DNA from: Patescibacteria group bacterium
GTDB taxonomy: Bacteria > Patescibacteriota > Patescibacteriia > UBA9934
Direction: 5' to 3'
Assembly (NCBI GenBank): GCA_018062825.1
Contig: JAGORL010000004.1
Coordinates: forward strand, 7,409-71,408
DNA length: 64,000 nt
Numbering within the stretch: position 1 is the first letter of the stretch; each line of letters starts with the position of its first letter. Below are positions 1,712 through 62,134 of the stretch, one piece after another. The notes below the pieces were generated by a model. That model was not told the origin of the DNA and did no database searches. It was given only the letters and a program-made list of their open reading frames with translations. A program made the translations under genes and the position numbers.

Positions 1712-2293
1712 CTAGCGCCAGCCGACACGTTCGGCAAAGTCGCTAGAAAGGAACGAGACCTCGGGGAACTCAGTGCGTAGCTTGTCGAGGCGCTTTACAC
1801 GCTCGAGCTGCTTAGCGCCAAGGCACGTGAGTGCGAAGACCTCATTGAGGAGCAGGATGAACATCGCTACTCCCTCATCTGACTCGTCCTGACGCACCGG
1901 ACGCAAGATCGAGACGTAGGTGAAAATCTTGAACGTGACTGTGAGCCACGTATCAAAGCTCAGCTCCTGACGAATCACCTGCGGCGCCCAATCGTACGGG
2001 CGCGCGAGTCCATCACGCAGCTGCTCACCGGAGATGTCCGGCGCGCACAGGACGTCGAGCATCCTGCCAATCGCCTGGGCGTACCACAGCGCCATACGAT
2101 GATCCACATAGCGCTTGTTTGCCACGTGCTCACGTATACGAGCTAGGAAGAGCCCCTCGACTCCTGGCCACGGATGCAAGAGCATCCGGATCTGCCGTTC
2201 ACGCCCTAACTTCGGCGTGAACTTAGGGTCTGTCTTGTCCTCATCGGGCGGCACATCGTGCCGGCCGCCTGGAATCAGGTCGAACTTCAGCAT
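1712..2293 (-). CDS. hypothetical protein, high-GC gene A (likely horizontally acquired); ATG start at 2293 rather than the TTG-extended 2305
   Basis: 193-aa ORF whose GC is visibly higher than its flanks (runs such as cggcgcgcacaggacgtcgagcatcctgccaatcgcctgggcg). ATG at complement 2291-2293 is preceded by GGAGG (ttggaggctttcATG) and promoter module A. No family recognised. Confidence 0.6.
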   Translation of the reverse strand: MLKFDLIPGGRHDVPPDEDKTDPKFTPKLGRERQIRMLLHPWPGVEGLFLARIREHVANKRYVDHRMALWYAQAIGRMLDVLCAPDISGEQLRDGLARPYDWAPQVIRQELSFDTWLTVTFKIFTYVSILRPVRQDESDEGVAMFILLLNEVFALTCLGAKQLERVKRLDKLRTEFPEVSFLSSDFAERVGWR

Positions 2294-2317
2294 GAAAGCC
2301 TCCAATTTGGTTGGCTG

Positions 2318-2346
2318 ATATTAGCAGAAAAAAGCGTTTTTGTCAA
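2318..2346 (-). promoter_or_regulatory. sigma70-type promoter, module A: TTGACA-N17-TAATAT with T-rich spacer AAAACGCTTTTTTCTGC
   Basis: Minus-strand read: ttgacaaaaacgcttttttctgctaatatcagccaaccaaattggaggctttcATG. It is nearly identical to the modules upstream of the genes at 13900, 3923-4681 and 51500. Confidence 0.55.
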
Positions 2347-3872: not shown

Positions 3873-3878
3873 AAGAAG

Positions 3879-3910
3879 AGGCCCACACGCGTTACGTGTG
3901 GGCCTTTGAG
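3879..3910 (-). terminator. GC-rich intrinsic terminator of high-GC gene B
   Basis: Perfect stem GGCCCACACG / CGTGTGGGCC with a 5-nt loop. On the minus strand it is followed by UCUUCUUUU. Its GC-rich composition suggests it travels with gene B. Confidence 0.5.
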
Positions 3911-3922
3911 TCACGGGTCACG

Positions 3923-4681
3923 TCAGCCGACACTCGGCGAACGACCCCACGTGTGCTCCGGGAAGCGATCGTAGTAACGCGTCATGAACGTGTACCAACA
4001 AGCATCGAGCGCGGTTGGCGTCGGACAGACGCACAGCATGCAGAAGAGCGGCACGACCGCGCTGATGGCGCGATAGCTCTTCGAGCCGCTGTCGATCCCG
4101 GCGAGGCTCGCCTTGTTGCGCAGAAGCGCCTGGAGATCGATCACGAACTGGTACCGATCCACAGTGACGACCCCAGGAGTTCCGAGGCGCCGGTGCTTGT
4201 CCTCCCGATCCCAGATCGTCATCGTCTCACAGACGATGGGCGTGATCTTGCGATCGCCACTCGCCTCGAGCGCTGCGTAGAACGCCATCGCGAGCTTCTC
4301 GTGCATGTCATGCACGATCGAGTGCGGCTCGCTGTCGCCATCGATGTTCAGCATCGCCGGATCGAAGAGCACGCTCTGCACGAGGCGTGCCATCGCGACC
4401 GCATTCTCGCCAAGAAGAGGGGTCACGATCTCCTTCGCGAACTTCGGGAAGTGCTGGAGAGCACCCCGGATCTCCTTCGGCCCTTCACGGACCAAAGGCT
4501 GCGTGCTTCCCCGTACCGCGGGAAGCTGCGAGCCCCTCGGCTTCGCGGACAGCTCGATGAGCTGTCCCCGGCCCGGATGATCCACCCTGGCCTTCACGAG
4601 GTGCAGAGGAACGTGCCGCTGCGGAAACGGCAATACGTTGTCGAGGCCATCGGCCTCATCTTGGCAACTGTCATTATTCAA
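3923..4681 (-). CDS. hypothetical protein, high-GC gene B (likely horizontally acquired), TTG start
   Basis: 252-aa balanced-composition ORF. The opposite-strand ORF 3896..4726 is Arg-rich antisense noise. The TTG start (complement of 4679-4681) lies 4 nt after AGGAGG. No in-frame ATG occurs until far downstream. No family recognised. A weak H-x3-HD (HSIVHD) motif is noted. Confidence 0.55.
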   Translation of the reverse strand: MNNDSCQDEADGLDNVLPFPQRHVPLHLVKARVDHPGRGQLIELSAKPRGSQLPAVRGSTQPLVREGPKEIRGALQHFPKFAKEIVTPLLGENAVAMARLVQSVLFDPAMLNIDGDSEPHSIVHDMHEKLAMAFYAALEASGDRKITPIVCETMTIWDREDKHRRLGTPGVVTVDRYQFVIDLQALLRNKASLAGIDSGSKSYRAISAVVPLFCMLCVCPTPTALDACWYTFMTRYYDRFPEHTWGRSPSVG

Positions 4682-4719
4682 GGTGCCTCCTTTGCCCCAT
4701 CACGGGGCACTCGTGGCGA

Positions 4720-4748
4720 ACAATAGCAAAAAAATGCAATTTTGTCAA
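4720..4748 (-). promoter_or_regulatory. sigma70-type promoter, module B: TTGACA-N17-TATTGT with spacer AAATTGCATTTTTTTGC, then a CCCC/GGGG hairpin in the 5'UTR
   Basis: Minus-strand read: ttgacaaaattgcatttttttgctattgttcgccacgagtgccccgtgatggggcaaaggaggcaccTTG. Confidence 0.5.
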
Positions 4749-4760
4749 TCAAAAACAGCC

Positions 4761-4838
4761 AATATTAGCGAAAAGCACAAATTAAATAGCAAATATTTGT
4801 TATCCACACAAGCCGCAAATATTAGCGAAAAAAGGCGT
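4761..4838 (-). repeat. two orphan partial copies of the promoter module (T-tract plus GCTAATATT -10 part, no good -35)
   Basis: Plus strand 4761-4775 aatattagcgaaaag and 4818-4838 aaatattagcgaaaaaaggcg. Their reverse complements, cttttcgctaatatt and cgccttttttcgctaatattt, match the TTTTTTCTGCTAATAT core of modules A and E. Confidence 0.45.
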
Positions 4839-4869
4839 AAAATAGAGACAGTATTCTTCAACGAAACCT

Positions 4870-6600
4870 ATGGTCATGAAAGGCGAAAGACGTTTTGATC
4901 CGATGGACGCACCGGACGTAAAAAGCACCCGTTGGTATCAAGAGAAAAATCTTGATGCAACCGTTGAAGATGTTGGCGATGAAGACCTTGATATCGAGGC
5001 TATTGCCGCTCGCAATGAAACACCAAACCTCAAAGCCCTGATGGCCGCTGATATTGATGCGAATATTCGCGCAGAGAATAAGGCCGAGCATGAAGAGCGC
5101 ATGCGAGTAAAATCTGAACAAAAAGCAGAAAAGCCGCTAACAGAAATCGAGATCAATCCTGATGCGCAAAATAACCCCGAAGCTGTTGTAGCAAAAGCAG
5201 AAGTATCAATGCTGCGTCGCGTATCCTCTGGCATGCGCGATGTCTTTGGCGTTGCTGCAAGCGCCTACGAAAGCCTTAAAAGCATCGGCACAATTGATAA
5301 CGGAGAGGGTAAAAAAATCGAGGTTGGAGCTCGTGCGAGCGTAACAGACATGAAACGCGGCGTTGCCGATTTCTTCGCCGACATGCGCACAACACTTTTT
5401 GGTGGCACAGAGAAACAAACAATCGACGTCCTTGAGCAAGATGAAACAACCGAGGGTTGGGAAGAAAAAGAAGGTGTTGTAGATAAGAAATACCCAGGAC
5501 TCCTTGAGGAATTAGTTTCCCGCCTGCCAGATGCACCAAAAACAATGAAGCGCGCCTTCTTAGCCGTTGCCGTTGATGTACCAGTTGGAATCTACGAGTC
5601 CTGGAAGCGCAATAAAGAGCTCAACGCCTCGCTAGAACAAATGCTCAAGGAAGAGCACGGTGAGGAATACACGCTCGACATGTGGCGCGCTAAAGAAGCT
5701 GATGATCAATTAGAATTCTCTCCTGACGCCATTCGCGCACGAAATGATGCTCAGGATGAACTGTACTACGACGGGATCATTGAAGCGCCTACCTTTAAGG
5801 AGGCGTTGAAGCAAGATGTCGTAACAATTGTAGGCGCTGGCTCTGAAGCCATGAAGAGCATGCATGTCGCTATTGGCCGTGCCGCAAAACACGCTTTCTA
5901 TGAAGAGCCGCTTGATCTTCTTCGTGGCTACGGCATGATCGCAGAATCCCTCGCAAGCGATGTAAAGCGTGGCGCGGAAGTAGCTAAAGGCAAAGGAAAA
6001 GAAATCGCGCAAGGCGCTACAAAGGCAGCTGAAAGTCTCAAGGTTGGTACAAAAGAACTGCAAACCAAAGCGGAAAAAGCATTCGGCAGCTTCAAAGAAA
6101 AAACCTGGGGCGCCAAAGCAAAACGAAATGAAATCATCCGAGAACGCAACGGAAGGCGCATTGCGGTCTACATTGAAAGCATGAAGTCAGAGGCTGAAGC
6201 AAGTGAACTAGCCAAAGATGAAGAAAGAGAAGCGGTGCCAATGAGCAGGAGCGACCGAGAAACAGTGATTGCAAAACGAGCCCTTCAGTTGAGTAAGCAA
6301 ATTACCGAACTAAAATCTGCTGTAGAGAAAGGTGAAACACACAAAAAACGCCTTCTTACCGCCCTAGAGCGCGTACAAAAAAACAACACGCTACGCGAGC
6401 AGACGCTCGAGGATATAAAACGAGCTATTGCAAGCGAAGCGGTTGATGTCGCAAAAAATAAAAATCGCATACTCGATCTTCAGCACCTATTAAACGCCTA
6501 CACCGAAAAGATAACTCCTATCGAGCTACCTGAGGCAGAGATAGATGAGGCAGATGAAGTGACTGATGAAATGCCACGCTCAACCGAAGAATCGGCCTAA
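4870..6600 (+). CDS. acidic Glu/Lys/Ala-rich hypothetical protein (acidic protein 3)
   Basis: 576-aa ORF with backbone composition. It is charged and coiled-coil-like, with no recognisable enzymatic motif. Confidence 0.55.
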   Translation: MVMKGERRFDPMDAPDVKSTRWYQEKNLDATVEDVGDEDLDIEAIAARNETPNLKALMAADIDANIRAENKAEHEERMRVKSEQKAEKPLTEIEINPDAQNNPEAVVAKAEVSMLRRVSSGMRDVFGVAASAYESLKSIGTIDNGEGKKIEVGARASVTDMKRGVADFFADMRTTLFGGTEKQTIDVLEQDETTEGWEEKEGVVDKKYPGLLEELVSRLPDAPKTMKRAFLAVAVDVPVGIYESWKRNKELNASLEQMLKEEHGEEYTLDMWRAKEADDQLEFSPDAIRARNDAQDELYYDGIIEAPTFKEALKQDVVTIVGAGSEAMKSMHVAIGRAAKHAFYEEPLDLLRGYGMIAESLASDVKRGAEVAKGKGKEIAQGATKAAESLKVGTKELQTKAEKAFGSFKEKTWGAKAKRNEIIRERNGRRIAVYIESMKSEAEASELAKDEEREAVPMSRSDRETVIAKRALQLSKQITELKSAVEKGETHKKRLLTALERVQKNNTLREQTLEDIKRAIASEAVDVAKNKNRILDLQHLLNAYTEKITPIELPEAEIDEADEVTDEMPRSTEESA

Positions 6601-27514: not shown

Positions 27515-28168
27515 ATGCGATCGTTCAACTACTTCATCATCGCCATCATCACCATCGCAAGCATCACCTTTTTGTTTTTTGCCTTTTCCGTACAGGTAAA
27601 AGATCGGATCATCTTTACTGATGTATTACCAGATATTTCAGAACCAACAATAACCGTCGCCGATCCACAACTCGGACCAAAGGAGGCCGCAGTGACAATT
27701 GTAAACTTTGGAGATTATCAGTGTGAAAGCTGCGCAACCCTAGACGCCACGCTAACAGAACTTCATGCAACCTATCCAGATGATGTGCGCATCGTCTGGA
27801 AAGACATGCCAAATCGCTCAAGTCATGAGCAGGCATTTCCAGCCGCTATCGCCGCACGCTGCGCCGCTGAGCAAGATGCTTTTTGGGAATTCCATAAAGT
27901 ACTCTTTGCTAATCAAGCGCTCTTAAGTGACGCTCTCTATACCGCACTTGCCACTGAACTTGGACTGAATGAAAACAAGTTTAATAAGTGCTACAGCACG
28001 CAGGCTTCGGCTCCATATGTTGAACGTACGGAAGCCGAAGGCTACGCTCTTGAAATCACTGCCACGCCAACGCTCTGGATTAATGGCGAACGATCAACCG
28101 GAGCTTCAAGCCTAAGAGACCTAAGCCGAATTGTAGAAGATGCACTTCGGGCACGCGCACTTGAATAA
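27515..28168 (+). CDS. DsbA-like thiol:disulfide oxidoreductase, membrane-anchored
   Basis: N-terminal TM and thioredoxin-fold CxxC (NFGDYQCESCATLD). 217 aa. Confidence 0.7.
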   Translation: MRSFNYFIIAIITIASITFLFFAFSVQVKDRIIFTDVLPDISEPTITVADPQLGPKEAAVTIVNFGDYQCESCATLDATLTELHATYPDDVRIVWKDMPNRSSHEQAFPAAIAARCAAEQDAFWEFHKVLFANQALLSDALYTALATELGLNENKFNKCYSTQASAPYVERTEAEGYALEITATPTLWINGERSTGASSLRDLSRIVEDALRARALE

Positions 28169-28174: not shown

Positions 28175-29275
28175 ATGAACGCCACAGTAATTCCAAAATG
28201 GATCTTAATCGCAGTCGCCATAAGCGGCTTAACCCTTGGAATTACCCAAAACGTCGCTCATGCCCAAGATGCCGCCACAGTCACTGCAAACGTTCGAGAA
28301 ATGGTCGTGCCGGATAACAGCCGAATCCCAATACTAAACGTTCCGATTCCAGGACTTGATCTTTCAGGCGCAGTCACAATCGATGTTGCCGGCGGTAGCG
28401 TCAAAAGTAACATGTTGGGACTCTATATCAACGCTATCTACGGCTGGCTCATTACCGCAGCCTCGGTCATGGCTGTTGTCATGATGATGATTGCAGGTCT
28501 GCAGTACGCAACCGCACGCGGCAACGCCGGTCAAGTAAGTGACGCCAAGGATCGAATGAAAAATGTCGTCATCGGCATGATCATGCTGCTGGGCGCGAAC
28601 ACCATCGCCACTTTTCTCGATCCAAATCTAACGATCTTTGAACCATTATCCGTACAACGAGTCTCGGGTTACGACGTTCCAAACGAAACGCCTACCACCT
28701 TTAATCAAAACTACAGCTCAACCGCCGCTGAAGGCCTCATTTCAATTCCTTTAAAAAGCCAAAAAGACTACGTCAACGTTCCTTACGGACCGGGACGATG
28801 CCGAACCGTTGATTCTGGCAACATTAAATCAAGCGGCTGCGGCGTCGTATCGTTTAGCATGGTCGCAGAAGCGCTCTCCGGCCAAAGCGTGAATCCACCA
28901 GACGTCGCTGAATCATTCTACGTTGAGGGCTTCAGACCACTAGACAGTAACGGCTGCGGACACAACGGAACCATGCGCTCCGCCTTTACCGGATCATCGC
29001 TTGTAAAACAATACGGTATTAAAAGCCGAGACATTCCAATTGGCAATCAACAAGAGATCGTTGATTTACTCGAGCAAGGCAAGGTGCTCATCTTGCTCTA
29101 CAAAACTGATTCAGGTGGTGGACACTACGTCGTCATGTCGGGTATAGATACAAATGGTGAGGCTATCATTAGCGATCCATGGGGCGGTGTTCGCTACACG
29201 CGTTCATTCCAATGGATATTTAGCCGCATCAAACACACTACCTATCTTGATACCGAGGCGAATTTCATACAATAG
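28175..29275 (+). CDS. secreted/membrane protein: VirB2/TrbC pilin-like two-helix hydrophobic hairpin fused to a C39-like papain-fold cysteine peptidase domain
   Basis: Signal peptide (..NVAHA-QD), hydrophobic helix / charged loop ARGNAGQVSDAKDRMK / hydrophobic helix. The C-terminal domain has a Cys motif SGCGVVSFSMV and a His motif GGGHYVVMSG..DPWGG. Confidence 0.5.
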   Translation: MNATVIPKWILIAVAISGLTLGITQNVAHAQDAATVTANVREMVVPDNSRIPILNVPIPGLDLSGAVTIDVAGGSVKSNMLGLYINAIYGWLITAASVMAVVMMMIAGLQYATARGNAGQVSDAKDRMKNVVIGMIMLLGANTIATFLDPNLTIFEPLSVQRVSGYDVPNETPTTFNQNYSSTAAEGLISIPLKSQKDYVNVPYGPGRCRTVDSGNIKSSGCGVVSFSMVAEALSGQSVNPPDVAESFYVEGFRPLDSNGCGHNGTMRSAFTGSSLVKQYGIKSRDIPIGNQQEIVDLLEQGKVLILLYKTDSGGGHYVVMSGIDTNGEAIISDPWGGVRYTRSFQWIFSRIKHTTYLDTEANFIQ

Positions 29276-41468: not shown

Positions 41469-43409
41469 TTAACTCTTCTTCGCTTCCCCGCCCTCTTTAC
41501 CAACATTCGACAGAGCTCGCTGATACTCTTCACGAGCACGCTCCTGCTCCAAAAGCTGCTGAGGATTGGTAGTAATAATCTGATCCTCTGTATATGAAGC
41601 CACAACCTTCAAAGCGGCATGCTTCTGACCAGCGAAGAAGATTCCCTCACCAAGCGCCGCTTCAAGTAAGAGGTACTTCTCGCTTTGCGTTAAATTGAAG
41701 GTCTTGGAAACAAGCTCAACGCCCGCTGGCGATTGCTTAAGAAGAATCTGCATGGACGAGTTAGTCACAATCGCCTGCCCGTACTGCGATGTCAAAAAGT
41801 CATTAACGTCTTGAGTAATGGTGGTAACACCAAGATAGTACTTACGCGCACGCTTCACAAGCGCAAAGATAAACTTGGCTGAATCCTCATTTTGCATGAG
41901 CCACCAAGCCTCATCAATAACCAAAATACGCTTCTTACGCTCAGAACGAACGACATTCCAGATATAGTTAACGATCGTATAGATCGCCATTGGTCGTAAT
42001 TCATCTTCAAGGTCACGTACTGAAAAAATAACCAGCTGATTGCGCATCTCAACGGTGGTCGGCGAGTTCAACAATCCCGAGAACGTTCCAGTAACAAATT
42101 TCTGCAAACGAGCAACAAGATTGTCAGCCCCATCCATGCCCTCCAAAACATCCAAAAGATCGTTCAAGATTGGATAGTCAGTAATGCTCGAAAGGTTTGG
42201 CAAGTCCGGCGTAATATCTTTCTTAGCATACGCCTCAAGAAGCGCTCGATCCAAAATACTATCTTCTTCAGGTGTAAAACCAAGCGTTCCCTTTTCGCCC
42301 ATCGGCTTACCGATCATGATACGCAGCAATCCCTTCAGGGTAATAACCGCGCTACGTAAAATATCTTCAACCGATGACTCTTCACCCTTTGGTCGAGGCA
42401 GATCAAACGGATTCACCTTAGCCTCAGAAGCCAAAGAGACGTTAATAAACGTGCCACCGACCGCATCAGCCAGCTGGCGATACTCCATTTCCGGGTCGAT
42501 CGCGATGACATCCGTACCCATCATCATGGAACGCAGAATCTCAAGCTTGATGGTGTAACTCTTACCAGCACCGGAAGTAGCAAAAATAACTGAATTCGCA
42601 TTCTGCAAAGAAAAGCGATCAAACAAGATAAGCGAATTATTATGACGGTTGATGCCGTACAAAATACCGTTATCACTCGTAACATCACTTGAAGTAAATG
42701 GAAACGACGACGCAATCGGCGACGTGTTCATGTTAAACGAGATGAGAAGCTCGTCGTTGCAAAGTGGCAGCGTAGAGTTAAAACCCTGCTCTGTCTGATA
42801 AAAACCACGCTTCGTGTAAATAAGCTTCGTCGCAAAAATCGACTCAATCTCCTCTGTGCGTTTATCAAGCTGTTCTTTGCTGGTAGCGTACAGCGTGACG
42901 TAAAAACAAAATTGAAAGAAATGCTCAATACCTTGAGTAAGATCGTCACGCAATTGTTCAACATCGCGAAGCGCCGTTTCCCGAATCGGATCACGCGGTT
43001 TACCGGATTCATTATCGGAAATGATCTGCGCCTCTAAAATACCGGTCTTATCACGTAGCTGTTTCAAAATAACTTCCGATTTAATCGGATAAAAGAACAT
43101 GCCGATATCAATCGTTCCTTTAAAGTTGATAATTGGCGACCCCCAACCGATGCCCACATATCGAGGATACGTCGTAACAAAAAGCGTACGAGCAAAGCGA
43201 TCATTAAGCTTCAAGAACGTTGGATCAACCGCAAAAGATGATGGCGCAATCAAATCACGAACCGAAACCGTACCGCGACGATAAACGCGCTCTTCTTCAA
43301 GCGTTGCCCGCTCCTGGATCTTCTTCTGATCCTGAGTAGACATGGGACGTGCCTTCATGGCATCACGCGCCGACTGCTGTTTCTTGAGGTCTTCAATGTT
43401 AAATGCCAT
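41469..43409 (-). CDS. VirB4/TrbE-family type IV secretion ATPase, C-terminal two-thirds (ATG at 43409; track TTG start 43430)
   Basis: Conserved VirB4 middle region ..RDLIAPSSFAVDPTFLKLNDRFARTLFVTTYP.., Walker A SGAGKSYT and Walker B-region ILVIDEAWWL. Confidence 0.85.
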   Translation of the reverse strand: MAFNIEDLKKQQSARDAMKARPMSTQDQKKIQERATLEEERVYRRGTVSVRDLIAPSSFAVDPTFLKLNDRFARTLFVTTYPRYVGIGWGSPIINFKGTIDIGMFFYPIKSEVILKQLRDKTGILEAQIISDNESGKPRDPIRETALRDVEQLRDDLTQGIEHFFQFCFYVTLYATSKEQLDKRTEEIESIFATKLIYTKRGFYQTEQGFNSTLPLCNDELLISFNMNTSPIASSFPFTSSDVTSDNGILYGINRHNNSLILFDRFSLQNANSVIFATSGAGKSYTIKLEILRSMMMGTDVIAIDPEMEYRQLADAVGGTFINVSLASEAKVNPFDLPRPKGEESSVEDILRSAVITLKGLLRIMIGKPMGEKGTLGFTPEEDSILDRALLEAYAKKDITPDLPNLSSITDYPILNDLLDVLEGMDGADNLVARLQKFVTGTFSGLLNSPTTVEMRNQLVIFSVRDLEDELRPMAIYTIVNYIWNVVRSERKKRILVIDEAWWLMQNEDSAKFIFALVKRARKYYLGVTTITQDVNDFLTSQYGQAIVTNSSMQILLKQSPAGVELVSKTFNLTQSEKYLLLEAALGEGIFFAGQKHAALKVVASYTEDQIITTNPQQLLEQERAREEYQRALSNVGKEGGEAKKS

Positions 43410-43413
43410 ACGC

Positions 43414-52434: not shown

Positions 52435-55400
52435 CTACTCACGCGAAACCGTAATCACGCCATCGTAATACACCCAAGGAGAAATGATCCCATCGTAGTC
52501 TGAATATTCATCGTAAGAACATTCAGCGGTAGAATCCGAAGGACTTAATAAGCTATTTCCACCACCATCAAAACATCCCTCTCGCCCATCGAGACCTGGA
52601 TCGCAACTACCCGTACACCATCCCCAGTTATCACGCACGTGAACTCGAGGCTGGAAGGTACACTGCGCATCAAGACCAGGATTTGTCACACATGGGCTAG
52701 CGTCCAAGATACCGTCACCGTCATCATCTGAACAAACCGGCGCAGTCTGAATGATGTCAGACGTACAGGTATAGATGTGATTGTACGATAGATAGTTTGG
52801 ATCACAGCTCTCATCAGTGAGGCCCCATTCGCTAGCAAGGTCACAGCGGCTAACGGTTGTATTGTTCTGCAAACCACGGTGGTTCTTGTAGAAGTTGTCA
52901 TCGGCATCCGAACCGCTTTCAATGCCATCACCCCAATCAATGATAATACGACGAAGTGGCAATTGATTCTTATCTGCTGCCGCATAGAACTTCAGGTTGG
53001 CGCGGTAGAACTTGATAGCCGAGATATTTCCGCCATCCTGGGTATTGATGGTAAAGGCATTCTCTTGATTCTCAGCACACTCCGTACCAGAACAGTTGTT
53101 CATGTCGAGTGACCAGATCTTGGGAGGAACACCTGAAGTACCACGAATGTCCCAGTCGAGCCCAACATCTGAAGGCTCCTCAACACCATCCTCATAGGAA
53201 CCAAGCGCCTCACCTCCAATGTCGCTTACGGTGAAGTTCGTATCACCGATAACCCAGCTAATTAATCCGGCCGGCTTAGCAAAAAGCTGCTGCAAACGAC
53301 CAATGATATCAGATGCATCTTCCGAGGTAGCCACATCTTCAGAGAATGAACCGAGTGAGTCCCAGGCAAGGAATGGCTTAGCCTGCGAAGACCCTGCACT
53401 GGCGAAAGCTGGCTCAAAATCACCACCCCAGAACGAACAATCTTCTGGGTTGTCAGCATCAGGTACTGGCAACAGGGCTCTCGTTTGAGGTGTGGAATTT
53501 GGATTTGCACATGCTGGAATGACAGCCGGTGTTGGATCTTCCAGATCATTGAATCCACTATTTAAGGTCGGGACAGTAATAGTGCCAGCCCACGGAGTAT
53601 TAATCGTTGCATACTCGTAAACATAGTCGCCAACGGTAATTTGCGATAACGAAGTGCTTTCAGGGTTCAAGACCCGATCTGTCCAAGCATAATTCTGCAC
53701 ATCCGCAACATCAGCCGAGCTACCGAGAATTAAATTCTCACAGGCAGGGTATGTTTCCCAATCCGGTCGCTGCACCGAAGATATATGGAAATCATCACCA
53801 TTAGGATCAAAGCCCTCATTAGAGCCACCATCAGCTAAATCTATAGCCATCGGCCAGGCAAAGAACCCGAGTTCATCCTCAACTACAGAAGAGCCGTAAT
53901 ACGTACAATCTAGATAATTATCCATCAAGATTTGAGCATTATCGTAACCAGCTTCATCTGAAGCAGAAAGGAAGAAATACTCAGTGCGTTCCTCAAAAAG
54001 ACCATTACCAGACGTGACGGAAAAACCAAGATCTTCTTCAGACGGCGTTTCACAAGCGTCCCCATTAGCATGAAACGAATTGTACGGAACACAAACGTAA
54101 GGACAAGCATTAACGGCATCCGTACAAGCTTCAGCGAATGAATTTGTATCCGTACCACCGTTATTCTTAGCTCGTCCACCCACTGCCCAGAATCCCTCAG
54201 GGCATGAAATAGTATGACGACAGTCATCCGATCTCTCAGTATTGATGCTTGCAGGCCTACTCGGAGCATTTAACGGATCTTCGCCGAGACTTTCAGCACA
54301 CGCCGTATAGGAATCAATATTGGCATAACCCCGAATCTCACCACAGTAGTTCAAATCACTAGCAACACCAGCGGTGGTGTACTTAGCAAACAAGTTCGTC
54401 TGACCAGCTAGCTGATCAACCGGTAGCCAAGTAACACAAGCCTGCTCATCACGATCACCATTTATATTGATTGCGCTATCACGCTCCAAACAGTAACCAG
54501 TGATGCCGTACAAATCATCAGCCCGAACAACTGGCTGACAAACGCCACCGCCTGTCTCACAATCACCTTCAGAAATAGCGCTCGAATCCGTAGAGCCAAA
54601 TGAACAGTAAACGTTATCAAACTCACCACCGGAACAAAGACCGATATTTGAGTCAGGGAAACGAGACTCAGTTGAGTAATAACGACTATCCCCTCCCTGC
54701 TGTCCATAACTGACCTTAGTGTAGGAACACAGACATTCCTCACCAGGCGCACACGTATTCACCTGATCAAAACCAGCACGCGTGCTGTACACCGTAGCAT
54801 CAAGGGTTTCGTTATCAATCTCCTCAATAGTGTTCTTAGCCTCTGGATCGTACCAACGCTCAACAACATCAGTAGAGAATGGACTTGTCTTCTCAGGATA
54901 GAGTCGGCACTCAGCAGCCTCAGCAGTTGCGGTATCAAAGGTATTACCATCTGGAGTCAACAAACAACGCTCGTTCAAACAAGTTCCAACCTTGAGCTGA
55001 ATATCTTCAATGAATGATTCGCCAGAACCACAGGAGAGTGTTGGATTGCTTGGTACAAAACTTTCAACCGTCACCGTAGCGCCCGGAGTAGCACATGAAC
55101 CAGCTAAACAGATATCACCCTCGTCACAATCAGCATCAGCGGCACAGAAGTCTGCGGTATCAATGTCGTAACAACCTCCAACAACGCACGTATCCCCTGA
55201 TCCACAGGATGCAGAAGAAGAACAAGCAGCGCCGCTCGTCTCACACACACCAACGCTACAGCTTTCACCAAAGTAGAAACCGTCATTCTCTTCACAGCTA
55301 CCGGCATCAAGCGCTAAACGATAGTCCGGCTTAATGCCTTCAGGAGCACAGTGATTATTCGATGACCCTGCGAATGTTCCAGTGATACCACAATCCGAAT

Positions 55401-58400
55401 CAACTATACACGTGTCACCCTGATTATCATTAAAGACCGTTTGCGTAATATCACCATTAGCAAGCGCTGCTCGCAAATCACACGTCAAAGGCTCTGGGGC
55501 AATATTCGCCTGGGTAAGCGCCTGTACTGGGTACAGGTCAGGAATCGCCATACCAGAATATTCATCGCCGTACCAAGAAACATCACGAGAGGTGTAGCGC
55601 TCTACATCAAGAACGATTTCTGGATCTTCAAAGTTCCAATCATCACAGAATGAAGCGTCACCAAGTGCCGTGTAACCACTACACAATTCAACATCAGAAC
55701 ACACCGTCTTGAATGTTGCGGAGTTCTCATCCCAAACGGTTTCGTAGTTTGCACAAGTTAACCACTCAGAACACTGACGATCACGGTTCACCTTCAAAAG
55801 CGTATTTGTATCGTTTTCAAGGCGATCAACCGGAGCATTCTGAACTCCAAGAGCCGGCGGCGTAACTCGAATCTCAGTCGTACAATCGTACGCCTTAATC
55901 ATTTCACCTGTTTCACTCTCAAGTGGTGAACAGTCACTCACCGAGTAACAAGACGTACCAAGAATCGCTACATCAGAAGCCTCGGTATAAAGACCGCTAT
56001 TACCAGCAGATGTTTCCTGGCTCATCTTCGCAACACGTCCAACGCCATCGGTAATATCAAGCACCTGACCTCGGTCGTACACACAGCGCTGAGCACAAAG
56101 GTCGATCGTTTCCCCACCAACTGTTACCACCTGGGTATTAGAAGCATCACAGTTAATTGGATCAACAAGGGAGTACGGCGCCTGACCAAAGATGACATCC
56201 GCATTCTTGCTTGCCGCCTCGGTGGCAGAAGCGTTGTACAAACGTGAAGACGTACCAGTGTCTAAGAACAAGGCACAGCCCTCCTTCAAAGAGGCTTGAC
56301 CATCGCAACGCTGGCTCGCTGGCAACACGTTCTCATCAAGATTGTCGTTATTCAAGAAAACGTAACTCTCACCATCAGCGTCTGAATACACCTCGTCAGA
56401 ATCAACATCTAATGGATCAAAGTACTCTGTACAGGTGCTGTACTCAGGCTCACACATACCTGCCCAGCCACCAAACTGAGCATCACCATTGCGCCACAAA
56501 CCGGACAATTCCCCGCCTACTAAGTAAGAGGGATCCTGGGTGTTACATGTATCAGCCGCGCCACCCGTACAATCCGCGGTTGAAGAACAGGCATTGCCGC
56601 CAATAGTACATGTGCCGTAACAGAATGAATCAGAACCTTCACGGAACCAACCATCATACGAACTACCAAGAATAGTGACGTCCGTACGGTACTCACAACG
56701 CTGACCTAATGGATTTTTGAAATAATACGTGGTATTCGCGTCATCAGACCAAGCCTCACAGAAAAGCTCATCCTGTTCACAAAGAACCTCATCAAATGTA
56801 TCAGGATCAATCGTGCGATAAACGCTGGCAGCTCCAAGTGTGCTGTTGCGATCCTGAGAGAAAGTCGGAAGACCGATCTCGGTACAACCAGCAGCACCCG
56901 TTGCGCAAGTAACGTCATCCGTTACTACCAGGAAGGCGTCCGTATCAGCCAAAGCTACCTGAGTAGAAGAAGCAAAGGTCAGATGCGCTGTTGATCCCGT
57001 GCTAAGAAGCGAAGTGGATGTATAACCATCGTAATCAAAGGTACAGAAACTAGTACCAACACCGATCGTACACAAGTACTGACTAGTGGTGTCATAAACT
57101 GCACCATTTGATTCGTAGTAACAGGAAGTAGCGGAGGTAGCCGGCAAACCATTTAACGTATTACAACGCAAATTGTGTACCGAAGCATACGGATCCTCGC
57201 TCTCCTGCGTCATGAAAAACGCATCACAACCAACAACGTCATCGGAACAGAGCTTACTAAACGACTTCAAGTAAACCGTTTCATCCTCATGCGTGGAATA
57301 CTCCTGACAACCCAAGTAATACTGCGAGCTAGCAGCGCCCGTTGGCGACTGATCACAAATTGCTGGCGTTGACCAAGAGCCACGAATCAAAGCGAGATTG
57401 TCCTCACCCTCACGAACAGTAAGGTTGTCGATATATGCGGTAGCACTTGGGTCAAAGACAAGAGCCGTACCGGTACCAAAGGCTGCAAAGTCAGCGGCAT
57501 TAAGGTTAGCGGTATCCATCGGGCCAGCGCTAATCTCAGTCCAACCATCTGTGAGCGTAAATGTTCCAAGATCAATATCAATAGCTGTTGAACCATTTGC
57601 TGGCGACAGATCAAAACCAACGCGCACGGTACCCGTACCCTTTGCTAAGAAGCTAATGGTATACGTCTTACCGGAGAACAGTTCATCACTAATCGTTCCA
57701 CAATAGGTCTCGCCCTCAGAAACCACACAAGATCCACCCAAAGGAGATGCCACGGAAGAACATCCGCCATCAGTCGTACAGGTAGAACCGGTGGAATACG
57801 TGTGGGTACGAACAACGTCAGTGAAAACCATGCTCTGACCACCGGTAGCAAGCGATTCGCTACTCAAACTTGCAAATGAAGCGGAAGATGCCTCAAAGGC
57901 ACTCACCGTTCCGTCTTCAAAATTCTCACTAAAGGCGACACGCGAGTTGCGACCACGACCACCCGTATAAGAACGACAACCGTTATCATTATCAGAACAC
58001 TCATCACTCTCCTCTGCTAGCCCAAGGTATCGGCAAGTACCAAGTACCGAATCAAAGTAACCGCCAGACGACTCACAAGAAAGTTCACGCTGTGCGCTTG
58101 TAGCTCCTGCAATATCCGTCTTGCGATAAGCCTGACAAGCTACATCAACAGAGACGGTTTTGCTCCACAATCGATAATGAATACCTCCAGCAGCATCATA
58201 AAACTCACGGCAATCTGGATTGGTGTAAATATCAGCGTTCTCGTCACACGCTGAAGTATCCCAGTCGTAAATACCGTTACCATCTAAATCGATCGCATCA
58301 GAACAGGTCACCCCGTCATCCGTAGCATTCCAGTTAGAACACGGCGCTGCTCCCGGATCTGTATCAGTGCCACCACTAGCGCCATAAGAGTAATCTGCGC

Positions 58401-61400
58401 CACTCAAGCCAGATTCAAGCAAATTCCACTCACGCAATTGGTAACCAGAGGAGTCTGAGCCCTCCCAGGTATAGAAAACCGCTCCCTGATCGCCACCAAT
58501 ATTTGCCGCTGCTTGCTCTGGAGTAACGCAAGATCGAAGGTAAGTGTAATACTCCAACTCTTCAGTCGCAAGATTGGTAAACTCAGAACAGCCAACAGCA
58601 TCTTCTGAACAGGTTTCAGCGGTTGTTGGAATGAAATAAAGCGGGAACTCCCCATCCGGTTCGTAACGAGTTGGTTCTTGCTTATACGTATCGTAACCAG
58701 AACAAATAGACGGACAAGAATCAAGCTCATTGGCAACGCCCGTGATCGTTGGATTGCCATTTGTTGGGCTATACGCCGTACAGCCAACATCATTCTCAGA
58801 ACAAACTTGCGCATACGCTACACACGCCTCAGGATCAGTTGCTGCGCCAGTACAACCTAAATAACTCGGAGCAACCTTGGCAACAACCGTATCAAGTGAC
58901 GCGCTGCTGTAACCAACGGCAAACGTCGAGGCATCTTCACCCTGCTCAACCTGCACGTCATCAATATAGAGATCACCGATAAACTGAATCTCAGCCGTTA
59001 AACGATCCGCAGGATCAGCAAGGACTGGTGCGGTAAAGGTACAAGAAAACCGTTCATAACCAGTTGAGGTCGGAGAGCCACCAAAGCTGACCGTTTCATC
59101 ACCTCCACTTGCGTCATTATCAGCAAAAGAACAATTAGCGCCAGCGCTTGTTCCAGCTAGATCAATAGTAGATCCGGAATCAGAGGTAAAAACAATCGAC
59201 ATCTTAGCTGAAGCACTACCAGTGCTCACTTTTTGACGAGCATAGAAGGATGCTGAGTAGAACGTGCCCTGAGAAAAGGTAACGCCCGGCTGATAAACAG
59301 AACCGGTCGCCGGATTAACGCCAGCCAAGCCGGAACGAGCAAAGACACCCGTCGTATCAGTAACAACCGCCGCGGAAGAAACCATCCAACCATCCGCAAC
59401 GTCATCATTATTTGCATCATCCTCTAAACCTGGATTCTTCAAGATATTCAGGCGTAAATCTGAAGAACGACGTACTAGTTCTCGGCAACCGCCATCTTCT
59501 TCATCACACTCCTCAGCAGCAGATGTAAGGTAGATGCGATCGTCATAAACCTCAGTTGTACTCTCGGTTACCGCTAAATTAGTAACGGCTGGCCAGGCAA
59601 AAGACCCATCTCCTTGAACAACTTTTTGCGTGTCATACCACAAACAACCGGCATTACCTTCAGTACAAGGACCAGGATCAACGGAGTTACGAAGTAAAGA
59701 AATATCTTCACCCTGAGAATCTTCAAGTGTTAAACACGATGCGTACTGTTCAGGGCAGGAATCGCCACGGAAACTCCAGGCATTCTCTTCTCGGACACAA
59801 TAACCAAAGCCACCGATACAATTACCGTTCTCATCCTCATAAATACAACTCGGCATGTCGACACACTCCTCAGAACGAGCATTCGTGCCACTAACCGCCA
59901 AAAGCTGACCGTTACCCTGCATGCGACACTGTGTTTCTGGATATTTCAAAACCCAAGACGGATCAATGAGCTTACACCATGGGTGGTTAGCATCACGCTC
60001 CCCTGCTGTATTACAGTCGTCAAAACCATTAACTACCTGTTGAAGAGTTGGCGCAGTGCCGCTTGTAGCACTCTCAGCAGCCAATTCCCAACCAATAGGA
60101 AGCACACGAGCCTTGCGAAGTTTTACAAGGTTAGTATGACAATAACCGTAGGTATAACAATACGGATCTTGGTTACGAGCCACATCCTGTGAGCCAATAA
60201 GCGGGAATGATCCACGCAAAAGACCCTCTTCAATCGCCTCCTCAACAGTAATCGGCACCCCAGACGCCGCGCGTGCAACAGCGGACAAAAATGACGCATC
60301 CATGACACAGTTATACAAACCGCGATTCGTTGCCGATGGACAGGCAGCAAACTCAGAAAGAATGCTAAAGTTATCAATCTGCGTAGGAGCAGCTGCTAAA
60401 AACGAGCGGTAGGAAGCACGCGCTCCGTCAGCGTTCGATGAATTGATGGAAGCAATATCACCAAATGGATCAGGGATATCCATGTCAAACTTGAAAAGAC
60501 CCTGATAAATTTTCTGAGTAAGCTCAGAAAGAAGCGTGTTGGTAAAAACGGAAGCCGTATGAATACCAACACCTAAAAGCACATCCTGATCACCAAGTGC
60601 ACTAATTGCGAAATTCTTCTTAGTTTCACCCGGCTCATTAAGCTTATTGGCAAGGTCGTCAGCTAAGATATTTGCCGGAGTCTCAACGTTACCCGTAATG
60701 ACGTTCGTAAGATCCTTAAAACCGTTATTCTTAATATGAGCAACCGTCTCGATCTTTGCCTTCTCCAAAGCGTCAGCAATGGCATCATGCTGAATAGTGA
60801 CACCAACCTGAAACTCGTTAACAGTTGGATCATACGCATTTGCCAACTGTGTCAAAATCGTACGATTCTTCAAAAGATTTCCCTCTTCACTTGAAACGTC
60901 AGCAATAAAGCTATCCCAATTTTCAACAATCTCGTTAAATTCACACTGTGGCTCAGGGCGATCAAAAACACCCTGAATACCAAACATGATGGAAAGTCCA
61001 ACGTTAAAACGAGGTGCACACAAATTAAAATCCCCAAGAACGCCACCAAAGCCAGAACTTGCCGCTAACTCTGCCTGAAGTGAACCTACAGCCTCGCCAG
61101 CAACAGCCTGAGCATAATCAGTCCAGTAGTTTCCACCATCTCGACCATCAAAAAGCGGCTCATCCGCAGGACCACCCGCAGCAATAAAAACTGCGGCGTC
61201 GTATGCCAAACGATCAAGCGCAAAAGTAACCGTGTTCATCAAAATCTGAGCAATCGCAATCGATCGAACCTGTTTAGCCGTTAGTTCCGCAGTCTCAATA
61301 GCATCCTCCAAAGCACGAGGAGCATCAGTCAAGGTATTAGCTCCTACAACAAGCTGAGCAGAAGCAATAGTTGGCAGGAAAAAGCTCGTAAAGAGCGCCA

Positions 61401-61440
61401 ATCCTATACTTGCTCGTAAAAATCGATTGATAACACCCAT
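52435..61440 (-). CDS. giant (3001 aa) secreted Cys/Asp/Gly/Thr/Ser-rich surface protein of the secretion locus
   Basis: Single uninterrupted 9-kb ORF with backbone-like composition. N-terminal signal peptide (..LPTIASA-QLVVG). Dozens of Cys and many D-x-D/G-rich segments suggest an extracellular disulfide or calcium-stabilised repeat architecture. Confidence 0.8.
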   Translation of the reverse strand: MGVINRFLRASIGLALFTSFFLPTIASAQLVVGANTLTDAPRALEDAIETAELTAKQVRSIAIAQILMNTVTFALDRLAYDAAVFIAAGGPADEPLFDGRDGGNYWTDYAQAVAGEAVGSLQAELAASSGFGGVLGDFNLCAPRFNVGLSIMFGIQGVFDRPEPQCEFNEIVENWDSFIADVSSEEGNLLKNRTILTQLANAYDPTVNEFQVGVTIQHDAIADALEKAKIETVAHIKNNGFKDLTNVITGNVETPANILADDLANKLNEPGETKKNFAISALGDQDVLLGVGIHTASVFTNTLLSELTQKIYQGLFKFDMDIPDPFGDIASINSSNADGARASYRSFLAAAPTQIDNFSILSEFAACPSATNRGLYNCVMDASFLSAVARAASGVPITVEEAIEEGLLRGSFPLIGSQDVARNQDPYCYTYGYCHTNLVKLRKARVLPIGWELAAESATSGTAPTLQQVVNGFDDCNTAGERDANHPWCKLIDPSWVLKYPETQCRMQGNGQLLAVSGTNARSEECVDMPSCIYEDENGNCIGGFGYCVREENAWSFRGDSCPEQYASCLTLEDSQGEDISLLRNSVDPGPCTEGNAGCLWYDTQKVVQGDGSFAWPAVTNLAVTESTTEVYDDRIYLTSAAEECDEEDGGCRELVRRSSDLRLNILKNPGLEDDANNDDVADGWMVSSAAVVTDTTGVFARSGLAGVNPATGSVYQPGVTFSQGTFYSASFYARQKVSTGSASAKMSIVFTSDSGSTIDLAGTSAGANCSFADNDASGGDETVSFGGSPTSTGYERFSCTFTAPVLADPADRLTAEIQFIGDLYIDDVQVEQGEDASTFAVGYSSASLDTVVAKVAPSYLGCTGAATDPEACVAYAQVCSENDVGCTAYSPTNGNPTITGVANELDSCPSICSGYDTYKQEPTRYEPDGEFPLYFIPTTAETCSEDAVGCSEFTNLATEELEYYTYLRSCVTPEQAAANIGGDQGAVFYTWEGSDSSGYQLREWNLLESGLSGADYSYGASGGTDTDPGAAPCSNWNATDDGVTCSDAIDLDGNGIYDWDTSACDENADIYTNPDCREFYDAAGGIHYRLWSKTVSVDVACQAYRKTDIAGATSAQRELSCESSGGYFDSVLGTCRYLGLAEESDECSDNDNGCRSYTGGRGRNSRVAFSENFEDGTVSAFEASSASFASLSSESLATGGQSMVFTDVVRTHTYSTGSTCTTDGGCSSVASPLGGSCVVSEGETYCGTISDELFSGKTYTISFLAKGTGTVRVGFDLSPANGSTAIDIDLGTFTLTDGWTEISAGPMDTANLNAADFAAFGTGTALVFDPSATAYIDNLTVREGEDNLALIRGSWSTPAICDQSPTGAASSQYYLGCQEYSTHEDETVYLKSFSKLCSDDVVGCDAFFMTQESEDPYASVHNLRCNTLNGLPATSATSCYYESNGAVYDTTSQYLCTIGVGTSFCTFDYDGYTSTSLLSTGSTAHLTFASSTQVALADTDAFLVVTDDVTCATGAAGCTEIGLPTFSQDRNSTLGAASVYRTIDPDTFDEVLCEQDELFCEAWSDDANTTYYFKNPLGQRCEYRTDVTILGSSYDGWFREGSDSFCYGTCTIGGNACSSTADCTGGAADTCNTQDPSYLVGGELSGLWRNGDAQFGGWAGMCEPEYSTCTEYFDPLDVDSDEVYSDADGESYVFLNNDNLDENVLPASQRCDGQASLKEGCALFLDTGTSSRLYNASATEAASKNADVIFGQAPYSLVDPINCDASNTQVVTVGGETIDLCAQRCVYDRGQVLDITDGVGRVAKMSQETSAGNSGLYTEASDVAILGTSCYSVSDCSPLESETGEMIKAYDCTTEIRVTPPALGVQNAPVDRLENDTNTLLKVNRDRQCSEWLTCANYETVWDENSATFKTVCSDVELCSGYTALGDASFCDDWNFEDPEIVLDVERYTSRDVSWYGDEYSGMAIPDLYPVQALTQANIAPEPLTCDLRAALANGDITQTVFNDNQGDTCIVDSDCGITGTFAGSSNNHCAPEGIKPDYRLALDAGSCEENDGFYFGESCSVGVCETSGAACSSSASCGSGDTCVVGGCYDIDTADFCAADADCDEGDICLAGSCATPGATVTVESFVPSNPTLSCGSGESFIEDIQLKVGTCLNERCLLTPDGNTFDTATAEAAECRLYPEKTSPFSTDVVERWYDPEAKNTIEEIDNETLDATVYSTRAGFDQVNTCAPGEECLCSYTKVSYGQQGGDSRYYSTESRFPDSNIGLCSGGEFDNVYCSFGSTDSSAISEGDCETGGGVCQPVVRADDLYGITGYCLERDSAININGDRDEQACVTWLPVDQLAGQTNLFAKYTTAGVASDLNYCGEIRGYANIDSYTACAESLGEDPLNAPSRPASINTERSDDCRHTISCPEGFWAVGGRAKNNGGTDTNSFAEACTDAVNACPYVCVPYNSFHANGDACETPSEEDLGFSVTSGNGLFEERTEYFFLSASDEAGYDNAQILMDNYLDCTYYGSSVVEDELGFFAWPMAIDLADGGSNEGFDPNGDDFHISSVQRPDWETYPACENLILGSSADVADVQNYAWTDRVLNPESTSLSQITVGDYVYEYATINTPWAGTITVPTLNSGFNDLEDPTPAVIPACANPNSTPQTRALLPVPDADNPEDCSFWGGDFEPAFASAGSSQAKPFLAWDSLGSFSEDVATSEDASDIIGRLQQLFAKPAGLISWVIGDTNFTVSDIGGEALGSYEDGVEEPSDVGLDWDIRGTSGVPPKIWSLDMNNCSGTECAENQENAFTINTQDGGNISAIKFYRANLKFYAAADKNQLPLRRIIIDWGDGIESGSDADDNFYKNHRGLQNNTTVSRCDLASEWGLTDESCDPNYLSYNHIYTCTSDIIQTAPVCSDDDGDGILDASPCVTNPGLDAQCTFQPRVHVRDNWGWCTGSCDPGLDGREGCFDGGGNSLLSPSDSTAECSYDEYSDYDGIISPWVYYDGVITVSRE

Positions 61441-61450: not shown

Positions 61451-62134
61451 TTATTGAGACGCTTCAGCATTCTGCGCCTGAGTTAGCGCAGTTTGGTATA
61501 ACTCTAAAATCTGTCCATCGGTTAGCTGCCCAACTTCAGCCTCACTCACCCCGAGCGCTACCAATAACTCTCGTATATCGGCAACGGTTAGAGTGGAAAG
61601 ATCAACGTCTGCTGCAGTGTCAGTAGTAACAACGCCTTCCGCTGTAAGAGCGGCTTCTAACCCCTCAGGCTCAACCGGAACCGGCACATCATCCAAGAAC
61701 GTACCTGATGCATTGGTTGGCAAAACGGCATCAGCATCTTCAACAAGATCATCAGCTACGCACACCTCACCCGGAGAACAAAGCGGATCATCCCCTGCCA
61801 AGATCTCTGTACCATCAGCAATGCCATCGCCATCTGTATCTTGAAGATATGCGGAGGTCTTGAATACAAAACGTTCATCGTAATCACTTACACCATCCTC
61901 ATCTGTATCAGCGGCGCGCAACTGCGCCATCTCTGCTGACTCTTCTTCGTCAGAAGTTTGAAAACGCGGACCGGTATACGTAACAACAAATGGCACAGCA
62001 GCGTGCTTCCACAAGTAAAAACCACCTAAAACAAGGCCACCAAGCGCACAAATAAAAACAAAACCGATACCGACTCTCTGTTCAGAGGTCAGCGGCGGTT
62101 TGCGTGCCGGAAGAATAATCCGCCCTTCATCCAT
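61451..62134 (-). CDS. membrane-anchored acidic protein with thrombospondin type-3-like calcium-binding motifs
   Basis: N-terminal TM GIGFVFICALGGLVLGGFYLW. Motifs DTDEDGVSDYDE and DTDGDGIADGTE (D-x-D-x-D-G). It lies 10 nt upstream of the giant gene. Confidence 0.5.
   Translation of the reverse strand: MDEGRIILPARKPPLTSEQRVGIGFVFICALGGLVLGGFYLWKHAAVPFVVTYTGPRFQTSDEEESAEMAQLRAADTDEDGVSDYDERFVFKTSAYLQDTDGDGIADGTEILAGDDPLCSPGEVCVADDLVEDADAVLPTNASGTFLDDVPVPVEPEGLEAALTAEGVVTTDTAADVDLSTLTVADIRELLVALGVSEAEVGQLTDGQILELYQTALTQAQNAEASQ

Follow-up and report, generated by a model that had tools for sequence, protein, structure and literature searches.

A giant, cysteine-rich, predicted surface protein of Candidatus Uhrbacteria with a conserved scaffold and a variable C-terminal end

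Introduction

Among the proteins described from the candidate phyla radiation (CPR), the Peribacteria possess a set of large, cysteine-rich, strain-variable extracellular proteins, for which a role in attachment has been proposed (Anantharaman et al. 2016, PMC4736985). These number about 20 per genome, average 1655 amino acids (aa) with a Cys content of 7.2 ± 2.4%, and are in many cases encoded in a 14-gene cluster (PMC4736985). How the Patescibacteria (CPR) recognize and hold their hosts is largely unknown beyond a few cultivated Saccharibacteria. Here we analyze a giant gene of a Patescibacteria group bacterium, which occupies positions 52435-61440 on the minus strand of a 64,000-nucleotide (nt) stretch of contig JAGORL010000004.1 (assembly GCA_018062825.1); this whole stretch is referred to below as the window. 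The reading that we favor, to which we give about an even chance, is that the gene specifies a lineage-wide, single-locus, Sec-exported surface protein of the Uhrbacteria, which acts as a rigid device for the recognition of, or attachment to, host cells or glycan surfaces.

The giant RTX adhesins of Gram-negative bacteria, such as LapA and MpIBP, are retained through their N-terminal end and bind ligands with their C-terminal end; they carry many near-identical Ig-like repeats, RTX nonapeptides and a type I secretion system signal, and are essentially Cys-free. In Giardia's variant-specific surface proteins (VSPs), a Cys-rich framework bears a variable surface. Characterized S-layer proteins are typically Cys-poor, and many have SLH or similar anchoring domains. 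In type IV secretion systems (T4SSs), the pilins and VirB5 are exported via the Sec pathway.

The giant protein and its family

As proposed in the initial annotation of the window, the gene is a single uninterrupted open reading frame (ORF) of 3001 codons. It runs from an ATG start to a stop codon, and its product is identical to NCBI MBP9828343.1 ("hypothetical protein KBC55_04325"). A signal peptide without an evident transmembrane (TM) anchor had also been proposed, and both elements are upheld: a Sec signal peptide is predicted at residues 1-28 (61357-61440, minus strand), with cleavage between A-S-A and Q; it constitutes the sole Kyte-Doolittle window above 1.6 in the protein, with no further TM segment; and the P..A.AQ motif of this region is kept in the orthologs. 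No sortase signal of the LPxTG type (LPx[TSA]G) occurs anywhere in the protein, which terminates in ...YYDGVITVSRE. The high content of Cys, Asp, Gly, Thr and Ser that had been noted is likewise real: the protein has 128 Cys (4.27%), a share that is 0-1.3% among the remaining proteins of the window, with the M23 peptidase at 2.2%, while Asp (8.9%), Gly (9.2%), Ser (9.4%), Thr (8.3%) and Ala each account for 8-10% of the residues, Lys merely for 1.6%, and the pI is 4.05.

A search of 5.8 billion proteins recovered 207 matches to the giant protein, over 100 of which are full-length and collinear at 2900-3300 aa and 34-51% identity. Where the sources name these proteins, the name is "hypothetical protein", save one "carbohydrate binding domain-containing protein", and the organism names given are Candidatus Uhrbacteria, Patescibacteria, Parcubacteria or plain "bacterium". 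A pattern scan in which each GTDB species was represented by a single genome detected relatives in 119 genomes; most of the informative titles among these name Uhrbacteria or Patescibacteria, and many records are titled only "uncultured Gammaproteobacteria". Nearly all of the named hits are Candidatus Uhrbacteria or Patescibacteria, and the protein is conserved over its whole length across the uncultivated Uhrbacteria. When a library of 1.84 billion proteins was queried with a profile of residues 25-660, 1346 clusters (at 50% identity) matched, 1109 of them at E ≤ 1e-30. Of the best 150 clusters, 117 have at least 2500 aa, and we assume that the shorter ones are contig-end fragments. The gene occurs once per contig, at the same locus. 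We found no description of the family in the literature; it is a large one, almost entirely labeled "hypothetical protein" and, among its named matches, nearly confined to one major CPR lineage. No relatives were found in IMG/VR viral contigs, and a phage origin of the gene was rejected on this ground.

An alignment of 30 orthologs shows 109 of the 128 Cys to be invariant and 124 to be at least 90% conserved, the pattern expected of structural disulfides. The cysteines are not arranged in the way first supposed, i.e., in many short D-x-D or C-x-C segments: D-x-D occurs at chance level (25 vs. 23.9 ± 4.6 in shuffled sequences), C-x-C is depleted (1 vs. 5.3 ± 2.2), and C-x-x-C has no occurrence in the protein. 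What is enriched is C-x6-C (16 vs. 5.4 ± 2.2) and C-x5-G-C (7 vs. 0.5 ± 0.7), an excess that reflects a hairpin motif, C-[ST]-[ED]-[DN]-x-x-G-C-x-x-[YF], of which residues 590-1725 contain about 10 copies. Repeat detection and length comparison across genomes, both suggested together with the initial annotation, further set the protein apart from the "typical" giant surface protein that it was held to be. The only internal similarity in a profile self-comparison comprises two overlapping pairs, both within one duplicated carbohydrate-binding module (CBM) unit, and the orthologs exceeding 100 in number are collinear within the narrow length range given above; hence, the protein is essentially non-repetitive, collinear across genomes and nearly fixed in its cysteines.

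Metagenome bins may contain chimeric giant ORFs, so that a collapsed assembly, or several genes fused into a single ORF, has to be considered; apart from this prior worry, nothing was found in favor of such an artefact. Neither tandem nor long direct repeats are present in the DNA of the giant gene, and no repeat of 40 nt or longer exists anywhere in the window. An independent assembly from another sample (L086) contains a 2992-aa ORF with 97.7% nucleotide identity to the gene, and over 50 further ORFs from unrelated assemblies are complete and collinear, with lengths of 2900-3500 aa. In addition, synonymous substitution far exceeds non-synonymous substitution in the gene (dS >> dN). The independent, nearly 98% identical ORF, the complete orthologs and the lack of repeated DNA together rule out a collapse or hidden stops, and we regard an artefact of this kind as having a negligible probability.

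The base composition of the gene had been described as backbone-like, which is accurate for its GC content alone (0.478 vs. 0.491; 0.398 vs. 0.452 ± 0.053 at third codon positions). In its tetranucleotides the gene departs from the rest of the window, with a correlation of 0.61 as against about 0.90 for other 9-kb chunks, a deviation that we attribute to its unusual amino-acid composition. The conclusion formerly drawn from composition, that the gene is native and not recently imported, nonetheless stands, and is better established by the synteny kept across the lineage (see below), which points to vertical inheritance.

Strain-level variation

The L086 allele differs from the giant gene at 275 nucleotides, about 170 of which fall within three short patches on the minus strand. 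Patch 1 (55333-55452; residues 1997-2036) covers a disulfide loop, C2011-C2031, with an 8-aa indel, patch 2 (53386-53661) corresponds to residues 2594-2685, and patch 3 (52483-52608) to residues 2945-2986. Nucleotide divergence between the two alleles is about 40% in the patches and about 1% elsewhere. Outside the patches there are 84 synonymous and 7 non-synonymous codon changes; inside them there are 50 synonymous and 51 non-synonymous changes in addition to indels, with synonymous change being saturated. The high divergence, the indels and the saturation point to mosaic recombination of surface loops, and the whole pattern fits a scaffold under strong purifying selection, with the patches representing old, diverged alleles imported by recombination.

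The same distribution is seen in four independent strain clusters (≥90% identity), in which residues 1-2350 are nearly invariant and the variable columns concentrate at residues 2351-2780 and 2901-3001; in one of the clusters, these two regions hold about 335 of the 340 variable columns. Every one of the 24 Cys in this variable stretch of ~650 aa at the C-terminus is at least 90% conserved. The picture suggested by these alignments is one of a fixed disulfide framework that carries changing loops at the C-terminal end.

Two specialized sources of the variation were rejected. A target of a diversity-generating retroelement (DGR) is disfavored by the indels and saturated synonymous change of the patches and by the lack of a template repeat in the window, where no search specific to reverse transcriptases was made. 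A silent-cassette source is disfavored by the lack of tblastn fragments elsewhere in the window.

Domain architecture and predicted structure

Conservation along the giant protein is highest at residues 350-600 and 850-1000 and remains good up to about residue 2350; residues 2350-2780 are poorly conserved and indel-rich, and residues 2781-3001 are again highly conserved. Downstream of the signal peptide, the first region is Cys-poor (residues 29-340; 60421-61356, minus strand, as are all features of the protein), is predicted to form mostly long helices and has no relative in PDB or Pfam. It is followed by the most conserved core (residues 341-660; 59461-60420), which reaches 53-68% mean identity in residues 351-600 and contains conserved motifs, such as CYTYGYC.GNLVKLRKARI and GGYGYCVREEN, while matching no known family.

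Next come two CBM modules separated by a set of Cys-hairpin modules. The first CBM_4_9 module (residues ~665-835; 58936-59448) matches Pfam family PF02018, which is detected in two stretches of the protein with the best at residues 665-758; it scores 33.9 bits against a gathering cutoff of 25.9. The highly conserved Cys-hairpin modules (residues 860-1165; 57946-58863) combine the hairpin motifs with a DxDxNGxxD loop at residue 1051. The second CBM_4_9 module (residues ~1170-1347; 57400-57933) was recognized through an hhalign match to the first and a profile match to PDB entry 1gui. The duplicated unit, residues 721-890 against 1253-1408 (hhalign probability 96.8%), includes the flanking hairpins. 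In a comparison of the whole-family profile with PDB sequences, the single match was to 1gui, the CBM4 of Thermotoga maritima laminarinase 16A (E=0.0014); profiles of the N-terminal third and of the C-terminal domain had no match in the same sequences. Pfam detected nothing beyond CBM_4_9 in the protein, and NCBIfam recognized no family.

The remainder of the scaffold is a non-repetitive, Cys-rich β region with no known domain (residues 1355-2350; 54391-57378). The variable, indel-rich region beyond it (residues 2351-2780; 53101-54390) includes patch 2 and retains 12 of its 12 Cys at ≥90% conservation. The protein closes with a conserved Cys-rich β domain with variable loops (residues 2781-3001; 52438-53100), which includes patch 3 and bears the motifs DWGDG, HVRDNWGWCTG.C and PWVYYDG.I.V, along with a DxDxDGxxD loop at residue 2905. 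This loop and that at residue 1051 are the two canonical calcium-type loops of the protein. A PKD domain, as suggested by DWGDG, was rejected for the C-terminal domain, with none of 53 orthologous domains matching PKD models at E ≤ 1.

Structural modeling with AlphaFold2 was informative for the C-terminal part. Residues 1802-3001, modeled from 43 sequences, gave a predicted local distance difference test (pLDDT) score of 67.5; within this model, residues 1971-2311 are all-β (pLDDT 62-89 per 10-residue block), as are residues 2761-3001 (64-93, mostly 80-93). A model of the N-terminal 636 aa from 18 sequences was unusable (pLDDT 43.8); it shows long helices in the first ~300 aa, and Foldseek returned only noise at E>1 for it. 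For the C-terminal model, Foldseek found no match at E ≤ 1e-3 in PDB or among viral predicted structures, the best being weak and generic Ig-like, FN3 and PKD sandwiches (E>0.006). In neither structure set was there a match that would indicate the fold of an enzyme, a toxin or a known adhesin.

Most CBM4/9 modules occur attached to glycoside hydrolases, and the one solved relative comes from a laminarinase. Together with invariant acidic and aromatic motifs in the core, e.g., TWEGSD and REFYD, and a variable C-terminus that recalls the logic of polymorphic toxins, this raises the possibility of a secreted glycan-active enzyme with a hidden catalytic core, or of a contact-dependent toxin with the C-terminus as a polymorphic effector. 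However, no catalytic or toxin family was recognized by Pfam, NCBIfam, PDB profiles or Foldseek, and the Rhs/YD, VENN and PxxxxDPxGL motifs are absent from the protein. Moreover, its last 220 aa form a conserved framework with variable loops rather than swapped cassettes, and no immunity-like gene is conserved downstream, where the genes differ between genomes. We accordingly consider an enzyme or toxin highly improbable.

The partner gene

Ten nt upstream of the ATG of the giant gene ends a gene of the same strand (61451-62134, minus), which codes for a 227-aa partner protein. It has an N-terminal TM helix (residues 21-39) and two thrombospondin-type-3 (TSP3)-like calcium-binding repeats (DTDEDG..., DTDGDG...) along with a Cys pair, after which come a linker that varies and a short helical tail. 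The conserved core of the partner, DTD.DGL.DYDELYVYKTSPYL.DSDSDG..D.TEI.SG.DPNC, corresponds to two bacterial TSP3-type repeats and the Cys pair. The loop at residue 2905 in the C-terminal domain of the giant protein resembles these repeats.

A gene of 205-255 aa with a TM helix and DxDxDG motifs lies 1-30 nt upstream of the giant gene in about 55 of 66 loci, the two genes making up a strict cassette. Some of the loci without a partner may be artefacts, because the calling of start codons was crude. A homolog search with the 227-aa protein gave 4 matches, the partner being too divergent for a wider mapping.

A conserved small membrane protein that could anchor the giant protein would also suit a structural component of the envelope, such as the unit of an S-layer-like coat, in which case the C-terminal variation would stem from pressure by phages or predators and not from the choice of a ligand. 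A single gene per contig at a fixed locus, with named matches nearly all from one lineage, is in line with this alternative, as are the acidic pI of 4.05 and the extreme purifying selection on 2350 residues. Against it, Pfam and NCBIfam detect neither SLH nor any other S-layer domain, the Cys content of 4.27% is out of character, and a non-repetitive monomer of 320 kDa would make for an unusual lattice unit. We therefore judge an envelope structural role to be distinctly unlikely.

Gene neighborhood and the T4SS-like genes

Three nt after the stop codon of the giant gene begins an intrinsic terminator hairpin (52397-52432, minus strand), with a 15-bp stem, an A run and a U run. Its predicted fold has an energy of -21.8 kcal/mol (z -4.7), and none of 200 shuffled sequences was as stable. 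Homology to the 98%-identical strain stops exactly at this terminator. The ~1.5 kb past it (~50885-52396) are GC-rich (0.558 vs. ~0.49), and an ORF of 288 aa runs there on the opposite strand (51380-52246); its product bears a lipoprotein-type signal (…LSLMGC) and matched no family. The L086 strain has unrelated DNA here and other genomes have different genes, which points to a strain-variable insertion site.

Further along lies a T4SS-like block (41469-50884, minus strand), which we list as context, with no demonstrated link to the giant gene. In order from the giant gene, all on the minus strand, it specifies an M23 peptidase (49253-50884), a 964-aa polytopic protein with 7-8 TM helices (46337-49231), called VirB6-like solely for its topology and position, a 575-aa protein (44588-46315), PrgI (44117-44560), a 244-aa VirB4/TrsD-like N-terminal part of VirB4 (43414-44148) and a 653-aa VirB4 ATPase (41469-43430). 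The two VirB4 ORFs (41469-44148) overlap by 17 nt and represent either a genuine split or a frameshift. Additional T4SS-related genes lie 15-25 kb further on, where a fusion of a T4SS pilin with a C39 peptidase, RadA, RecG and ComF are found among Znu, Fur and Sua5 genes; this scattered layout matches that of the ABY1 class (PMC12102498).

The initial annotation had placed the giant gene directly upstream of the VirB6 and VirB4 genes and viewed its product as the extracellular business end of that system. The genes are indeed nearby and on the same strand, but the stop codon of the giant gene is separated from the 964-aa protein by the terminator, the opposite-strand ORF and the M23 peptidase; the distance to the VirB4 ATPase is about 9 kb. 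In orthologous loci, the order GroES-GroEL-RF1-epimerase-(Sua5)-KsgA-partner-giant is followed by 2-5 variable genes (NUDIX, HIT, SerRS, kinase, GIY-YIG) and then by the M23 peptidase and a ~950-aa membrane protein; in one further genome, locus tags indicate 16 genes between the giant and the VirB6-like gene. As the housekeeping genes on the other side are equally syntenic, nearness to the T4SS genes carries little specific weight. The business-end proposal drew on proximity alone, and the gene's own terminator and a spacing of 2 to 16 genes do not bear it out.

Spelled out, the idea is that the giant protein is a T4SS-coupled adhesin, pilus-tip protein or substrate, i.e., the contact element of a chromosomal MPF-FATA-like T4SS in a role of the PrgB type. 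It derives its appeal from the position of the gene, which lies 1.5-9 kb from those for the M23 peptidase, VirB6-like protein, PrgI and VirB4 on the same strand, in a neighborhood that recurs in orthologous loci at 34-44% identity; a Sec signal peptide would be compatible with it. The idea also addresses a real gap, because a survey of T4SSs in Patescibacteria reported no adhesin, leaving the PrgB-like role vacant (PMC12102498). However, a strong terminator right after the stop codon, strain-variable DNA with an opposite-strand ORF beyond it, and up to 16 intervening genes, including SerRS, NUDIX, HIT and kinase genes, all argue against coupling, as does the equal synteny of KsgA, epimerase, RF1 and GroEL. 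The gene that is closely paired with the giant gene is the small upstream partner and not one of the T4SS genes, and the latter are themselves scattered over 25-51 kb of the window. Furthermore, the giant protein lacks an LPxTG signal and any similarity to PrgB-type domains, and T4SSs are reported phylum-wide (PMC12102498), while the named matches of the giant family are nearly all from Uhrbacteria. A homolog search with the 964-aa VirB6-like protein returned only Uhrbacteria-type matches, by which the distributions of the T4SS and the giant family are not separable. On balance, we consider coupling to the T4SS unlikely. Its most specific version, in which the giant protein and its TM/calcium-binding partner form the missing contact module of a T4SS-like machine of the Uhrbacteria, a functional analog of PrgB whose recombining C-terminal loops choose the host cell, appears quite unlikely; were it true, the host range of an uncultivated lineage could be read from the C-terminal alleles.

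Several other features of the window were recorded. A DsbA-like thiol:disulfide oxidoreductase (27515-28168, plus strand; Pfam Thioredoxin_4 1.3e-24, DSBA 9.3e-15) has a TM helix at residues 8-26. Its gene is immediately upstream of that for the 366-aa pilin-peptidase protein (28175-29275), in which, unusually, a T4SS_pilin domain is fused to a papain-like peptidase domain (C39/C70), and RadA and RecG follow. At 744-6600 on the plus strand, four consecutive ORFs (307, 510, 276 and 576 aa) without Pfam matches occupy a region of high AT skew; three have GTG or TTG starts and the 576-aa one has ATG, and the 307-, 510- and 576-aa products are Cys-free with 8-9% Lys. Of the 32 2-kb bins of the window, 31 show negative GC skew and all show positive AT skew, and the minus strand carries the majority of the longer ORFs; the window accordingly appears to lie within one replichore, with a strong strand bias.

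A possible mode of action

Under the favored reading, that of a recognition or attachment device, about 64 disulfides would be formed after export, for which the membrane-anchored DsbA encoded 24 kb away is a candidate catalyst. These disulfides would lock a long, mostly β, non-repetitive scaffold, which might be retained at the cell surface non-covalently, probably via its helical N-terminal region together with the co-encoded partner. Low-specificity binding of glycans could be provided by the CBM modules. The distal end would then consist of the variable C-terminal region together with the C-terminal domain's loops; it may contact a strain-specific ligand or else be the face exposed to phages and competitors, and homologous recombination with diverged alleles would keep this end changing.

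Several observations weigh against this reading. The 2350 collinear residues that are nearly unchanged between strains would be unusual for adhesins and fit a structural or enzymatic role as well. The CBM match is weak, at 33.9 bits and E=0.0014 to 1gui, the N-terminal third was not modeled reliably (pLDDT 44), and no fold match backs any particular function. The protein has no recognized anchoring motif, neither LPxTG nor a TM segment, and the partner as an anchor is a proposal drawn only from gene adjacency. Finally, as Uhrbacteria have no cultured member, the function of the protein stays inferential.

With its near-frozen scaffold of 2350 residues and its recombining C-terminal end, the protein is a concrete candidate for a determinant of host specificity or one exposed to phages, and its alleles could be followed in metagenomes. 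About 109 invariant Cys in a non-repetitive chain of 3000 residues also make the protein an unusual target for structure determination.

Comparison with known systems

The sequence features that define RTX adhesins, PrgB adhesins, polymorphic toxins, DGR targets, PKD domains and S-layer proteins were each searched for in the giant protein or its locus without success, and membership in these classes was rejected. Like phage receptor-binding proteins and antigenically variable surface proteins such as the VSPs of Giardia, the giant protein combines a conserved scaffold with a presumably distal part that is hypervariable and recombining. It differs from them in having no relatives in viral contigs, no viral fold match and no CxxC, and in being specified by one gene per locus, with no silent cassettes in the window.

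With the RTX adhesins it shares giant size, acidity and predicted calcium binding, and their end-to-end layout resembles the arrangement inferred for it. Unlike them, it has no tandem repeats or GGxGxD motifs and instead has a Sec signal and 128 Cys. The PrgB adhesins of Gram-positive conjugative MPF-FATA systems are similarly large, secreted and encoded near genes for VirB4, a VirB6-like protein and PrgI. In contrast to these, the giant protein is about twice the size, disulfide-rich and without LPxTG or PrgB-like domains as detected by Pfam and NCBIfam, and its gene stands outside the T4SS operon, with its own terminator and a variable spacing. The CBM4/CBM9 family (PF02018) is represented by its two modules, one above the gathering score, and by the profile match to the laminarinase 16A CBM4; these modules account for only about 350 of the 3001 residues, and no catalytic domain was recognized alongside them.

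The comparison with the Peribacteria proteins reaches furthest. Differences are evident in that the giant protein is the product of a single gene of ~3000 aa at a fixed locus, contains 4.3% Cys, is non-repetitive, is collinear across the whole lineage and is paired with a small TM/calcium-binding partner. Yet it too comes from a CPR bacterium, bears a signal peptide, exceeds 1000 aa, is Cys-rich, has no functional annotation and is strain-variable. As a class defined by description, the large Cys-rich extracellular proteins of the CPR are the closest described kind, and the giant protein fits within it.

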